Source: Eledone cirrhosa
Taxonomy: Eukaryota
Length of the DNA: 64,000 nucleotides
NCBI GenBank assembly: GCA_964016885.1
Contig: OZ024761.1
Location: 13,392,001-13,456,000 of the forward strand
Direction: 5' to 3'
Position numbers and translations under genes: made by a program. The notes beneath the pieces are model-generated. The model worked only from the letters and a program-made list of their open reading frames with translations. It was not told the origin of the DNA and made no database searches. Positions 2,485 through 61,245 of this stretch are shown here, in pieces (position 1 is the first letter of the stretch; the number at the start of each line of letters is the position of its first letter).

Positions 2485-2531
2485 TGCTCCGAAGAATCCA
2501 TACCTAGGTTTGGATGAAACAATTGTAAGTG
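2485..2531 (+). ncRNA. Hammerhead variant with a CCGAAGA core
   Basis: tgct CCGAAGA atcca..tggat GAAA c-aatt-g TA agtg. Confidence 0.5.
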
Positions 2532-3237
2532 ATTAAATGCTTTGAACATAGCTTTGATTCTTGTGAATTCTCTCTCTATATATATATATTGAATTTGGTG
2601 CTCCACTTTATTCAATAGTATATATATATATATACACACGTGGACATATGTATATATTTATGTGTGTGTATATGTATATATATATATGTGTGTGTTATAT
2701 ATATTTATTTAACTATGCATACATACACACACACACACAAATGTGTATATATGCATTTATATGTGTGTGTGTGTATATATATATATATATATATATATAT
2801 ATATTTAACTATGCATACATACACACACACATATGTGTATATATGCATTTATATATATATATATATATATATATATATATATATATATATATATATATAC
2901 ACATATATATATTTAACTATTAATACATATACACACACATATATATCTATATGTATGTGTGTATATATATATTTATTTATTTATATATATATATGTAATA
3001 TATATCTCTATATGTGTGTATATATATCTATATATGTGTGTGTATATATGACAAGATGGAAGTTCAGGTGCAGAAAGTCTCCAGTTTAAACTAGTCTCAC
3101 GAAGATCAGCAAATATATTTGTATCGATTCCTGACAGGTGTGATACTTACAGTATTAGAAATCATAAGTAGCAAATAGTGAATTTAATAATATCTATTAT
3201 ATATATATAATATATGTGTGTGTGTATATATATATCT

Positions 3238-3685
3238 CTGGAAGTGAGGCAGAGAGGGTGTGTGTATATATACTTCGATGTATGTATGTGGCGGGTGGGA
3301 GTGTCTGCGCATGTAGGCGTACGTGTGTGTATGCATAGATAGGTATGTGTCTACATGTGTGTGTGTTTATGTGTGTGTATATACATATCCCTGGAAGTGA
3401 GGGAGAGAAGGTGTGTGTATATATACTTCGATGTATGTATGTGGCGGGTGGGAGTGTCTGCGCATGTAGGCGTACGTGTGTGTATGCATAGATAGGTATG
3501 TGTCTACATGTGTGTGTGTTTATGTGTGTGTATATACATATCCCTGGAAGTGAGGGAGAGAAGGTGTGTGTATATATACTTCGATGTATGTATGTGGCGG
3601 GTGGGAGTGTCTGCGCATGTAGGCGTACGTGTGTGTATGCATGAATGGGTATGTGTCTGCATGTGTGTGTGTTTATGTGTGTATT
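3238..3685. repeat. Tandem repeat of about 153 bp, three copies; a fold-back copy lies at 6698-6931
   Basis: ctggaagtgagg recurs at 3238, 3391 and 3544; core gtggcgggtgggagtgtctgcgcatgtaggcg. Confidence 0.85.
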
Positions 3686-4461
3686 CTAGTATGTGTGGGT
3701 GCTTACCCTGAAGTGTGAGCAGACGTGTGAAGTACTGAACCCAGCATGACTCCATTGAAATGTGTCGGACGGAAAATGGTTGATGAACCGTGTGGCAGCA
3801 GATACTGACCAGAACTTGTGATGACGTAGAGTAGAAACAGCCAATGGCATGACAAGAGTGGAAATAGGGTTTTTTGAGGGGTTGTTTTGATGATAACACC
3901 CCAATGATAAAATTTGCTCCGGACGAAACACCCGTGTCTGAAAGAATCCGCAGAAGTAGAATCAGCAAGATCCATACAAGGGCCGTGACTCGAGCTACAT
4001 GCCGGCGAAACATTTGTAACATGAAATAATGCATCATGAAATAATGCATCACTGATTTTTCGTTTTCTTTATAATATCTACATTCTACTCTGATGAATAT
4101 CGAGTGCTAATTTTGGCATACCGCCTATGGAAGCACCATAGCTACCACCATACACAACTATATATATATATATATATATATACATATATATATATATATA
4201 TATATATATATATATATATATATATATATATATATATATATATACATATATATATATATATATATATATATATATATATATATATATATACATATATATA
4301 TATATATATACATATATATATATATATATACATATATATATATATATATACATATATATATATATATATATATATATATATATATATATATATGTATATG
4401 TATATACATATATATATATATATATATATATATATATATATATGTATATGTATATACATAT

Positions 4462-5747
4462 ATGGAAAAAATGAAACGAAATTTCATTTCCCACTCTTAG
4501 TACGGCTGTTACTTAAATATAAGTATGTACACGTACATACATATATGTATACAGACGTACAGTAGTATGTATATATATATACATACATGCACACATATAT
4601 ATATGTACGTATGGATTCACCGAACATTTATTATAATGCTCGGTGTGTTTGTAAACAAACATCCCGTATTAAGCTGTAGTGTCTAGCAACCATCGTTGCT
4701 CGTTTGTTCAACACTGACAAAGGAACGCTGTACTAGTTTCAAGCTTATTAGCTATCGTCAGCAATGTCAGTGTTGAACAAACGAGCAACGATGGTTGCTA
4801 GACACTACAGCTTAATACGGGATGTTTGTTTACAAACACACCGAGCATTATAATAAATGTTCGGTGAATCCATACGTACATATATATATGTGTGCATGTA
4901 TGTATATATATATACATACTACTGTACGTCTGTATACATATATGTATGTACGTGTACATACTTATATATACATATATATATATATATATATATATACATA
5001 TACATATATATATATATATATACATATACATATACATATATATATATATATATATAAGTATGTATACGTATATACATATATGTGTACAGACGTACAGTAG
5101 TATGTATATATACATGCACAGACACACACACACACACACACACACACACACACATATATATATATATATATCGATGTAGGGGCTCCCACAGGAGCACTGA
5201 GTGCAATGTCAACTCTAGAAGAGGAAGACCAAGGTTCACGTATGTTGATGCCCTAAGGACAGACAATGGTCTGTTGGAGACGCAGGACATGGCAGCGATA
5301 ATGAGGGACAGAGACCGCTGGAGAGAACTCGTCCATGGATCTCGGGAATTTTACCCGCCTTAGATATATATATATATATATATATATATATATATATATA
5401 TATATATATATATATATATATATGCACGTATGGGTTTACCGAACATTTATTATAATGTTCGGCTTGTTTGTAAACAAACAGCCCGAATTACGCCGTACAG
5501 TGCTCGGAAATCATCGTCGCCCTTTTGTTCAACACTGACACAGGAACGATGTACTAGTTTCAAGCTTATTAGCTATCGTCAGCATCGTATACCTTTCTGT
5601 CAGATGATTGAACGTTTGAAAGTATGTACTTTCCGTATGCATATTAACGGCTGAGCAGCCTAATTTGCATATCGAGTGAGTTAGTCGGCCGGGCGTACCG
5701 GCCGTTAATAAGAGTGAGGAATGAAATTTCGTTTCATTCTTTTCCAT
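4462..5747. mobile_element. MITE-like family with TIRs of about 45 bp, set in (TA)n and internally rearranged
   Basis: atggaaaaaatgaaacgaaatttcatttcccactcttag at 4462 and its inverted counterpart ending at 5747. Family copies at 8004-9296. Confidence 0.7.
5172..5362 (+). mobile_element. RTE family B 3' end with a short inverted 5' piece
   Basis: 5174-5216 is the antisense of the family B body (atgtaggggctcccacagg...). 5216-5362 is the sense 3' end, [15 protein letters not shown]. Confidence 0.8.
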
Positions 5748-58899: not shown

Positions 58900-59910
58900 T
58901 TACGGCCCTTTATGGTTTGAGTTCAAATCCCGCCGAGGTTAACTTTGCCTTTCATCCTTACGGGGTCGATAAAATAAAGTACCAGTAATGCACTGGTAAT
59001 TGTTGGCCTCGTGCCAAAAAGTAGAAACAATTATTATTATTATTATTGTTGTGTGTGTGTGTGTGTGTGTGTGTGTGTGTGTGTGTGTGTGATTAAAGGC
59101 GAAATTTTTTTCGCTTGAGATTTCGTACTCGAAGCGTGAGAGATCGAAAGAAACACCACCGCTGTAATGACTCTGGTTCCAGTAAGTATTGATTTGATAC
59201 CAACACACTGTCTCATATTTCAGTAAATATTGATTTGATACCAACACACTGTCTCATATTTCAGTAAATATTGATTTGATACCAACACACTGTCTCATAT
59301 TTCAGTAAATATTGATTTGATACCAACACACTGTCTCATATTTAACAGTCTAATAATATTTTATTGAAATTTGGCAAAAAAAAAAAAAAATAATAAACGA
59401 CCAAGTTGACCTCGGCAAGATTCGAACCATGACCGTAAAGGAACGCAACTAAAACCATCAAACCATTTTAGCCATTTTAGTCGACACTCAACCGATAATA
59501 ATAATAATTATTTCTACTTTGGGCACAAGGTCAGCAATTATCCCAGTGCATTACTGGTACTTTATTTTATCTACCCTGTAAGGATGAAAGGTAAAGTCAG
59601 CCTCGGCGGGATTTGAACTCAGATCGTAAAGGGACGTAACTACGCCGGAAAGCATGTCCGACCCTCTACCGATACTGCCAATTCACCGATAATAATAATG
59701 TTTTTTTTTATATAGGCACAAGGCCTGCAATTTGGAGGGAGGGGGAAAGTCGATTGAATCGACCCCAGTGCGTGACTGGTACTTTATTTTATCGACCCCG
59801 TAAGGATGAAAGGCAAAGTTAACCTCGGCGGGATTTGAGCTCAGGTCGTAAAGGGACGTAACTCTATGCTGCAAAGCATGGCATCCGACCCTCTACTGAT
59901 ACTGCCAAAT
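58900..59910. mobile_element. Cluster of four copies or fragments of the same SINE family (one +, three -)
   Basis: Core or head motifs at 58920-58995 (+), and at 59400-59495, 59520-59690 and 59715-59908 (-). Confidence 0.72.
59180..59343. repeat. 41-bp tandem repeat, four copies
   Basis: Unit cagtaaatattgatttgataccaacacactgtctcatattt. Confidence 0.9.
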
Positions 59911-60442
59911 AATAATGAAATTATTTTTCCAATATTTAAGTTGTATGGTATGCATTCATCATCCCGTAACTCTTGATGGAGTCTTAGGGACACTGTAGTG
60001 ACATGCGAATGCACAGTGCACTCTATATGTGAATGGAGTTCCACTGAAACAGGTGGAAATGTTCAAGTATCTCAGGGCCGAATTCACGCATGCAAATGAG
60101 GCTAATAACCCCATTTCCACAGGCAAAAAAACTATATATTTTCGCCTGCTTCAATTCCAGGAGAGAGCAGGAGGAGTATTTAATATAGAAATGGCTTCTA
60201 CAGGACTAGAACTGTTACATTTAAAGGAAATCATCAGAAAAGCCCTTCGAATGAAACAGTTCTAGTCTTGTGGAATCCATTTCTATATAAAATTTGTGTT
60301 TACACTCTACTAATGTATTGAGTACTTTACTTACAGTGGTCACCCGTGATTGAACCTGGGACTCCTATATATATATATATATATATATATATATATATTA
60401 ATTCAAAATATTAACAAAAATAGCACTTCTTGTGATCAAGTA

Positions 60443-60509
60443 TATTTTATTATACATATTTCAGAGGTACTGAGCTAACTTCAACAGTACGTCCTCATCA
60501 GATAAAATA
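60443..60509 (-). ncRNA. Minimal type I hammerhead ribozyme
   Basis: Minus strand: tattttat CTGATGA ggacgtactg..cagtacctct GAAA t-atgt-a TA ataaaata; perfect 8-bp stem I. Confidence 0.75.
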
Positions 60510-61179
60510 AGAATAAGATGATGCATGACATACCCTGACATAGTAGATGGTTAAGATCCAGTCATGGTAGTGAATAAGATATGACAAAACTCAATATTTA
60601 TATACCTTAAGATTGAGACATGAAAAAATTTACATATAATACAGAGGGTGCGTGTAAGAAAGCTTAAAAATAGATAACAGCAATTTACATAACTGTTAGA
60701 GATTCAAATAATTTAAATTATTGAAGAAAGAGGAAAGAAAAAAGAAAGACAGAGAGAAAAAGCAGATGAGGGGATAATATAGCCAGTAGAGGTATAGAGA
60801 GCAAAAGAGAATTGATCAAGGAGAGAGAGATAAAGAGGAATAATTTTTATAGTGTAAAACATAGGGAGGGATGAAATTATATATATCTATTCAGAACTAT
60901 ACATTTTGACATAGCTTTGCGAAAGAGTAAACTCGAATCTTTGAATTAATGAATTATCTAGAAGTATTCATCAATCTAAATCCTAAATATAACTGGGTGT
61001 AATTAAATAAATAATTCTTTGATTTATTCATTGAACCTTGTTTAACCTTTAAATATATATATATATATATATATATATATGGAAAGTTATATTTAAAATT
61101 GTTGGGTTACAACTAGTAAATATTTATAACTGATATAAAAGCACTCGACAAATATTTGGAGTATTTGGAGTATTTGGAG

Positions 61180-61245
61180 TATTTTGTCTGAGGAAGGCAT
61201 AGCATATTGTTAATATGATATCCCTGAAATATATATAATGAAATA
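61180..61245 (+). ncRNA. Minimal type I hammerhead ribozyme
   Basis: tattttgt CTGAGGA aggcatagcatatt-gtt-aatatgatatccct GAAA t-atat-a TA atgaaata. Confidence 0.7.

Follow-up and report, generated by a model that had tools for sequence, protein, structure and literature searches.

Predicted hammerhead ribozymes at the 3′ ends of Penelope-like families, including two likely non-coding families, in Eledone cirrhosa

The 64,000-nt stretch of Eledone cirrhosa DNA analyzed here (hereafter, the window) carries CUGANGA...GAAA...UH motifs which very probably fold as hammerheads and lie at the 3′ ends of no fewer than ten families of Penelope-like elements (PLEs). Most appear to be 5′-truncated ends of elements encoding RT and EN, while two families, C and J, seem to be non-coding and probably rely on copying in trans, which for C is likely the work of a Hydra-type enzyme. 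Copies with a pLTR-body-pLTR arrangement and 5′ inversions are present, and ORFs were found upstream in families A, B, D, E, and E2 and in neither C nor J. The features of the window are listed below, with hammerheads as predicted.

2070–2571 (+): family A, 5′-truncated Hydra-type PLE end (sense 2252–2571, inverted tail 2070–2251; hammerhead 2485–2531, U4C)
4458–5751 (−): two older family J copies (cores 4761 − and 5582 −)
7107 (+): motif H, related to I, without stem I pairing
7845–7900 (−): family I hammerhead, missed earlier (core 7890)
8002–9303 (both orientations): family J, missed earlier; a 466-bp non-coding unit present as one inverted copy and one head-to-tail dimer (hammerheads 8342 −, 8556 +, and 9022 +)
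20671–20834 (+): family F end (intact core 20690, 62-nt stem II, damaged stem I)
24630–24811 (+): E-type end truncated within the hammerhead, which lacks its CUGANGA half
35687–35780 (+): family G end (core A9G and G12A relative to intact relatives)
39684–39815 (+): family B end (hammerhead 39711–39777; 128 nt identical to the inverted copy at 40856–41078)
40856–41078 (−): family B end, belonging to the 3′ UTR of a Hydra-type RT+EN element that has decayed (hammerhead 40894–40960)
41135–41358 (−): family C, final 224 bp of a 1.8–2.2 kb non-coding element (hammerhead 41190–41247)
41733–41945 (+): family B end with tail (hammerhead 41780–41846)
43350–43520 (−): family B4, sister of B (hammerhead 43377–43421, stem II deletion; probably inert)
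44249–44385 (+): B4 end with tail, cut inside the hammerhead, no CUGANGA half
58465–58693 (−): family D, Neptune-type PLE end (textbook minimal hammerhead 58559–58594)
60395–61011 (−): family E2, Hydra-type PLE 3′ UTR end (hammerhead 60443–60509)
61075–61294 (+): family E, Hydra-type PLE pLTR (inverted tail 61075–61163; hammerhead 61180–61245)
62004–64000 (+): family W, young Neptune-type PLE, 5′-truncated (RT end and GIY-YIG 62210–63295 in two frames; own inverted 3′ end 62004–62207 in front)
62158–62194 (−): W hammerhead-like motif (U3-A8 core, G-C-closed stem II, ACCGGU palindrome, A13C)

Upon inspection, all nine motifs recorded in the initial annotation were present at their given places, with cores at 2489 (+), 39716 (+), 40955 (−), 41243 (−), 41785 (+), 43416 (−), 58590 (−), 60501 (−), and 61188 (+). 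The motif at 2489 has the variant core CCGAAGA (U4C), a change seen in 29/29 family A copies and of a type already noted (PMC4075628). A strict descriptor gave five matches in the window compared to a mean of 0.06–0.15 (maximum 2) in 100 block-wise dinucleotide shuffles per setting, and a looser descriptor gave 13 hammerheads compared to 0.085 in 200 shuffles (maximum 2), counts so far above the shuffles that we rejected a chance origin. The looser descriptor recovered eight of the nine named motifs, together with five that had been overlooked (5582 −, 7890 −, 8342 −, 8556 +, and 9022 +), and failed for 43416, which has a two-pair stem II and a fold z of +1.5. MFE folds of single motifs were not significant, as expected for minimal hammerheads.

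Stem I, which was not used in motif selection, had 79% of its first five positions paired across 24 motif classes, compared to 51% (maximum 67.5%) in 5000 partner shuffles, of which 0/5000 reached 79%, indicating covariation. Across these classes, the stems differ while the core and pairing are kept, as first described. The nine named motifs represent seven families or subfamilies, the copies at 39711 and 40894 being inverted relative to each other and sharing 128 identical nt. The stem III palindromes listed earlier are also present, and a palindromic stem III was noted in 20 of 29 multi-copy classes versus 34 of 105 singletons, with B-type and I-type stems III being non-palindromic. The hammerhead core (C3–A9, G12–A14, A15.1–U16.1, and H17) was intact in 30/30 and 29/30 cases in family C and in 27/29 and 28/29 in family D. 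The copies initially described as degenerate proved mixed: the core at 20690 is intact, the core at 35687 is indeed mutated, and those at 24648 and 44250 are 5′-cut, lacking the CUGANGA half. We interpret the motifs as type I minimal hammerhead folds of Penelope type, i.e., predicted ribozymes. The genome is very rich in them, at ~90 per Mb (~2.7 × 10^5 genome-wide, estimated from 18 in 200 kb), and Rfam missed those checked, with no hammerhead among the 150 listed of 691 window matches and none at the gathering score in six loci. The Rfam miRNA matches were dismissed as microsatellite and inverted-repeat artefacts.

Each carrier had been read as a short (150–300 bp) non-autonomous family moved by a PLE like that at 62.2 kb (62209–63295), a reading we now consider highly improbable. 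Long copies of A, B, D, E, and E2 run into ORFs with RT plus a C-terminal GIY-YIG upstream of the hammerhead (W likewise encodes RT and GIY-YIG), which refutes it for 7/9 carriers, these being truncated ends of Hydra-type (A, B, E, and E2) and Neptune-type (D) families. The links, drawn from a few hand-picked long copies per family, were found at loci L175/L176 for A; at L359 for B (RT, EN, UTR, and B end in one copy), with further links by overlap at L174, L213, L320, and L324; at L280, L282, and L286 for D; at L211/L326 for E (pLTR, 735-aa ORF, 1.9-kb UTR, and hammerhead); and at L403 and L408 for E2. Values of 5′ extension near the locus edge in family B (L053/L054/L061) were left out as segmental duplicates. 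A family-wide RT deletion in D was rejected, the deletion at L179 being 1/40. The 5′ ends of carrier copies form a ladder with no fixed start. The supposed 150–300 bp elements are 5′-truncated 3′ ends of longer repeats, and the structure of EN+ PLEs (pLTR duplication, 5′ inversion, and an optional tail) was seen. The proposed mobilizer, W, is Neptune-type and has neither sequence nor a tail motif in common with the carriers; it was rejected as their parent since it gave only microsatellite matches. In kind, the short-element reading is correct for J (466 bp) and C, and it may apply to B4, F, G, H, and I, whose longest observed copies reach just a few hundred bases. A linked ORF in sense lay upstream at 0/25 B4 loci, no ORF-bearing parent of F was found in our search, and the 43377 carrier is a damaged copy of B4, the sister of B without an ORF link.

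Pfam fully recognized W, D only weakly (EN), and no others. Families A, B, E, and E2 were assigned as Hydra-type by protein motifs, namely DKT, CxCx5C, no CCHH, and no GxKF (E by pattern, A and B from translations). Of 238 homologues, hardly any bore a name.

Among the nine named motifs, only that at 41190 falls in a non-coding family, C. Its hammerhead-to-hammerhead distance was 1829–2209 bp in eight loci, and full bodies, 85–96% alike, were found in 22/30 loci. The longest open frames span 76–143 codons at positions unshared between copies, and we found no tblastn match, only profile E-values above 2 (controls, 1e-35 to 1e-145), no coding trace in six frames, and nothing credible in Rfam for the unit. 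Family C thus likely codes for nothing and is copied in trans, with a Hydra-type mobilizer suggested by the twin motif it shares with four Hydra-type families (see below). That C instead comprises ORF-less remains of an unseen coding parent, or codes via splicing, is highly improbable: the Hydra-type families here do have 1.3–2.4 kb 3′ UTRs like the C body, only ~60 C loci were examined, and introns occur in PLEs (PMC8557442), but a closed unit and one common junction of tail and body recur at many independent C loci, two C subfamilies 30% apart both begin at the motif, and the six-frame result stands against it. One C subfamily has a body 68–73% alike and a hammerhead almost unchanged. None of the sequencing runs listed for the C unit was of RNA.

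Family J, unnoticed earlier, is a 466-bp tandem element in which 12/27 tail ends run directly into a unit start, with spacings of 422, 429, 466, and 540 (counting copies within loci fetched for other families). On the retrozyme test, J forms tandem units of <1 kb, each with a hammerhead, and the C unit lies above 1 kb. No coding capacity was found over the closed J unit. Unlike C, which shares the twin motif with Hydra-type families, J matches none, and it has no candidate mobilizer. It is likely a retrozyme-like non-coding family, copied in trans by a borrowed enzyme. The expectation of non-autonomous families therefore holds for C and J, although at ~2 kb the C unit is not short.

Copies are ragged at the 5′ end, whereas their 3′ ends fall at two fixed positions, either lacking or including a tail of 60–180 nt. 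A twin RCUC..GAGYRCU motif is common to C and four Hydra-type families and, where mapped, begins no more than ~10 nt to the 3′ side of the principal insertion ends: end peaks lie at 100–119 and 250–259 in C (motifs at 114 and 258), 90–109 and 190–199 in E (105 and 198), and 100–109 and 180–199 in E4 (105 and 195), compared to 0.3% of random positions with a motif within 15 nt. Very large bins in A, B, E2, and J were microsatellite matches and were ignored. The motif forms a four-pair hairpin in which a single column is compensatory (G-C 6, A-U 3, and G-U 1 of 10), individually weak (z 0 to −3); family A, itself Hydra-type, fails the strict pattern, and W lacks this tail motif. The hairpin 3′ of each start site is likely a positioning signal for the Hydra-type RT. 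As first noted, the Penelope-type hammerheads lie in multi-copy repeats with 3′ ends abutting (TA)n, seen in 65–96% of copies versus 6% at random. This (TA)n adjacency is unspecific, given similar adjacency in RTE (10/14) and one SINE (17/25), with another SINE at 6/62.

By analogy with anole Poseidon (PMC11167929), a tandem locus would be transcribed, and the protein would nick TA-rich DNA and begin reverse transcription at either of two internal RNA sites. Early RT stops would yield short hammerhead-bearing stubs, and read-through would yield pLTR duplications. The hairpin just 3′ of each start site would position the Hydra-type RT, and C would have kept both copies. Hammerheads may cut the tandem RNA with the aid of a protein or as dimers via their stem III palindromes, and lone hammerhead stubs are likely inert. 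Of the Xenopus dimers tested, 8/9 did not cleave (10.64898/2026.07.22.740005).

Family W appears to be the youngest family here and the most recently active PLE, with 150/150 scored copies 99–100% alike and 17 in a 784-codon frame. Its upstream ORF overlaps, and GxKF, DKG, a CX4CxxC linker, and CCHH are present in W and D. Its motif reads GCAA in 32/33 matches and GTAA in one (overlapping loci included), so A13 is replaced, and its 4726-bp unit has no hammerhead core besides this A13C motif. It is conceivable, if rather doubtful, that hammerheads persist because they bind protein or serve as RNA structure, cleavage being dispensable, which would be compatible with the element structure described above. 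The A13C core of W is consistent with this, as are Poseidon core mutants that still insert in vitro and the lack of reads ending at the cut site (PMC11167929); against it, 24 classes that differ in their stems retain the core and the pairing of stem I, and sister families of W keep GAAA.

Published type I minimal PLE hammerheads share the fold, the short palindromic stem III, the U3-A8 variant, the mostly solo motifs of truncated PLEs, and the many families per genome, whereas several families here have a long or interrupted stem II (31–62 nt) with U-U or C-A at its base. Our estimate of ~2.7 × 10^5 motifs compares to 2,000–9,000 in published type I PLE hammerheads, with differing descriptors. 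Hydra-clade PLEs (Craig et al. 2021, PMC8557442) have the same DKT, CxCx5C linker, absence of CCHH, hammerhead, and (TA)n targets as E, A, and B; in the parts of that paper compared here, RWK stands in place of the RWR seen here, units are <3 kb rather than ~4.2 kb with 1.3–2.4 kb 3′ UTRs, and the twin tail motif is not described. Neptune PLEs have the same GxKF, DKG, CX4CxxC linker, and CCHH as W and D, from which W differs by A13C. Non-LTR retrozymes (PMC7229834; 10.64898/2026.07.22.740005) and non-autonomous Chlamys, e.g., MRC1 (PMC8557442), are likewise head-to-tail units that carry hammerheads, code for no protein, and have been proposed to employ the enzymes of PLEs. While J fits their size range, C is ~2 kb versus the 51–972 bp reported, is dispersed with PLE tails and inversions, and is linked to its proposed mobilizer by a cis motif rather than by pLTR identity as a whole. 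The Anolis carolinensis element Poseidon (PMC11167929) has the same two internal start sites defining the tail and AT-rich targets, with an AC-rich stem-loop in the place taken here by the duplicated RCUC..GAGYRCU motif, for which genomic ends are the sole basis.

Hammerheads on truncated PLE ends have been in print since 2014, so the headline is already known, and PLE-dependent retrozymes were argued for in a 2026 preprint (10.64898/2026.07.22.740005). More tentatively, at somewhat less than an even chance, we propose that the duplicated RCUC..GAGYRCU hairpin positions the Hydra-clade RT and sets both start sites and the tail, that ~2-kb C parasitizes this clade by keeping two hairpins and a ribozyme, and that the most recently active PLE spreads with a crippled core. 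Family W offers a natural test of how important hammerhead cleavage is for PLE spread. In the literature compared here, the internal-start signal of a PLE RT has been mapped for one element only; the 20-nt candidate start signal, common to several families and a non-coding passenger, is directly mutable. If true, the twin hairpin would define the cis signal by which a telomerase-related RT serves a SINE-like partner.

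All nine hammerhead motifs named in the initial annotation were found in the window (36% GC and rich in microsatellites; assembly of 3.0 Gb), and the excess over shuffled sequence by which they were to be judged was evident. A strict descriptor returned five matches against 0.06–0.15 in shuffles, while a looser one returned 13 against 0.085 (maximum two; n = 200 shuffles), comprising eight of the nine named motifs and five extra. The ninth, at 43416, was missed by the looser descriptor and has lost most of stem II compared with its own family. Because the descriptors themselves favour paired sequence, stem I was examined on its own in 24 motif classes picked on core, stem II, and stem III, with no regard to stem I. 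Its first five positions were 79% paired, versus 51% with partners shuffled, a level reached by none of 5000 partner shuffles; as the classes are related to each other, this is no formal probability. Among classes picked without a palindrome filter, 20 of 29 multi-copy ones had a perfectly palindromic stem III, as did 34 of 105 singletons. Rfam gave no hammerhead among the window matches listed, and none at gathering score in six loci. We consider the window motifs real. Across 20 evenly placed 10-kb stretches, 18 motifs were present versus 0.57 in shuffles, which extrapolates to about 2.7 × 10^5 motifs genome-wide (1.6–4.3 × 10^5, Poisson only). Two further families, H (7107, +) and I (7890, −), have a G-C-closed six-pair stem II and a non-palindromic stem III, and family I is common (six matches in 200 kb).

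Every carrier searched was a dispersed repeat rather than single-copy (40 best candidates scored per search), its copies sharing a fixed 3′ end but having uneven 5′ ends, in many cases preceded by an inverted piece. Upstream walks that started from the longest copies reached ORFs in five families.

Families with ORFs upstream of the hammerhead-bearing end
A (L175, L176): RT and GIY-YIG pieces flanked by one inverted and one direct hammerhead
B: RT and EN remnants, then UTR, then a microsatellite-rich stretch to the B end
D (three of 10 loci fetched: L280, L282, L286): RT and EN together with the D end
E (L211/L326): pLTR (terminal repeat), tail (3′ extension), 735-aa ORF, 1.9-kb UTR, and hammerhead, in that order
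E2 (L403, L408, of eight fetched): ORF reached upstream

Seven of the nine named motifs therefore sit on stubs (5′-truncated copies) of coding elements, and the proposal that the carriers are non-autonomous fails for these seven and holds for family C, at 41190. The window motifs are thus largely known debris of coding Penelope-like elements (PLEs), and Cervera and de la Peña reached the same conclusion for most metazoan minimal hammerheads. Judged by the protein motifs of Craig et al. (PMC8557442, section 11) and not by a tree, A, B, E, and E2 appear to be Hydra-type, and D and the PLE at 62.2 kb (W) Neptune-type. The one named protein homologue came from Argonauta; genome size and repeat make-up likewise suggest an octopus-like animal. 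Inside the B 3′ UTR lies another tail-like copy that includes the hairpin motif (L298 1100–1330; L174; L213), which suggests an older pLTR taken up into the UTR.

W (62004–64000), put forward as the kind of PLE that mobilises the carriers, has no real sequence in common with them. It is young, with a 4726-bp unit and a 1.7-kb 3′ UTR, and bears a single hammerhead-like motif (62158–62194, −). The motif combines U3-A8 with a stem II closed by G-C, has three pairs in stem I and the palindrome ACCGGU, and carries C instead of A at position 13 (A13C). Sister families share this plan but have GAAA, whereas A13C is the fixed state of the very young W family (L001) and of a second W subfamily (L070, L168). 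Both U3-A8 and U10.1-U11.1 have been described as natural variants (PMC3088659, PMC4209133), and A13 changes lower hammerhead activity 10–100 fold (PMC4075628). The 784-codon frame of W is overlapped on its upstream side by another open frame, at most 455 codons long and without a Pfam match (L001 4999–6363; L002 833–1684).

The suggested microsatellite preference is real, but not peculiar to these elements. In nine families (n = 6–53 each), 65–96% of 3′ ends, with tail or none, lay within 25 nt of (TA)4, versus 6.3% at random; the same was seen at 10/14 RTE ends and at 17/25 and 6/62 ends of two SINEs. Such a preference was previously reported for Hydra and Neptune.

Other features of the window
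45637–48132, +: low-complexity open frame, 831 codons, with Gln, His, Asn, Thr, and Gly runs
32397–33322, 35932–36636, 41866–42792, 53781–55145: broken RTE-type retrotransposon pieces (885-codon frame of the same family in L178)
12886–14262, 16698–17770, 22971–24541, 28869–30231: minisatellites, units of 40, 45, 72, and 79 bp, the 45-mer deriving from a SINE end
50869–51007: palindromic MITE-like repeat, also adjoining TA tracts in many loci

The 831-codon frame has a PLDLS word and a C-terminus that looks conserved, and is probably an exon of a host transcription regulator; PxDLS is a CtBP-binding motif.

Two families are genuinely non-autonomous. Family C sets itself apart from the ORF-linked carriers: in loci found with a query taken 1.8 kb upstream of the hammerhead, the tail leads straight into the body, which in turn continues to the following hammerhead, giving units of 1829–2209 bp (8 loci). 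The full bodies, excised from 22 of 30 loci, are 85–96% alike and have no open frame in common. C matched none of 122 fetched proteins or the local PLE ORFs, nor a Hydra-type profile that found both controls. A diverged copy (body 68–73% alike) retains the hammerhead and has its start at the same motif. The C body (L170 7400–7800) also contains additional TTGAGTGCT-like words and a patch rich in GC, perhaps a promoter or old start signals. Family J, absent from the initial annotation, lies at 8002–9303 as an inverted copy and a head-to-tail dimer of a 466-bp non-coding hammerhead unit. Since 12 of 27 distinct tail ends continue into the same unit start, the unit is real; spacings are 422–540 bp and subfamilies 79–100% alike. 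Of the local families, J comes closest to a non-LTR retrozyme.

Copies of C, E, and E4 end at two positions, and a motif, RCUC[CU]..GAG[CU][AG]CU, begins within about 10 nt after each end peak. E2 and E5 each have two copies of it and B and B4 one, while A, D, W, and J have none; of random positions, 0.3% show it. Ten instances form a four-pair stem with a G-C/A-U exchange at one position; single folds are weak, and in C this stem is not the lowest-energy fold. Given that the tail of an anole element is delimited by two start sites inside the RNA (PMC11167929), we infer that the twin motif may position the Hydra-type RT and be exploited by C, a putative link whose basis is the correlation of ends with the motif. 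In the part of the literature covered, neither the twin motif nor a non-coding hammerhead PLE of 2 kb nor an A13C hammerhead turned up; the supplements of PMC8557442, which list Hydra families and hammerheads, may include relatives. The word "ribozyme" is absent from an Octopus vulgaris repeat paper (PMC13282606). The two non-autonomous families, together with the twin motif as a candidate cis signal, somewhat raise the interest of an otherwise known finding.
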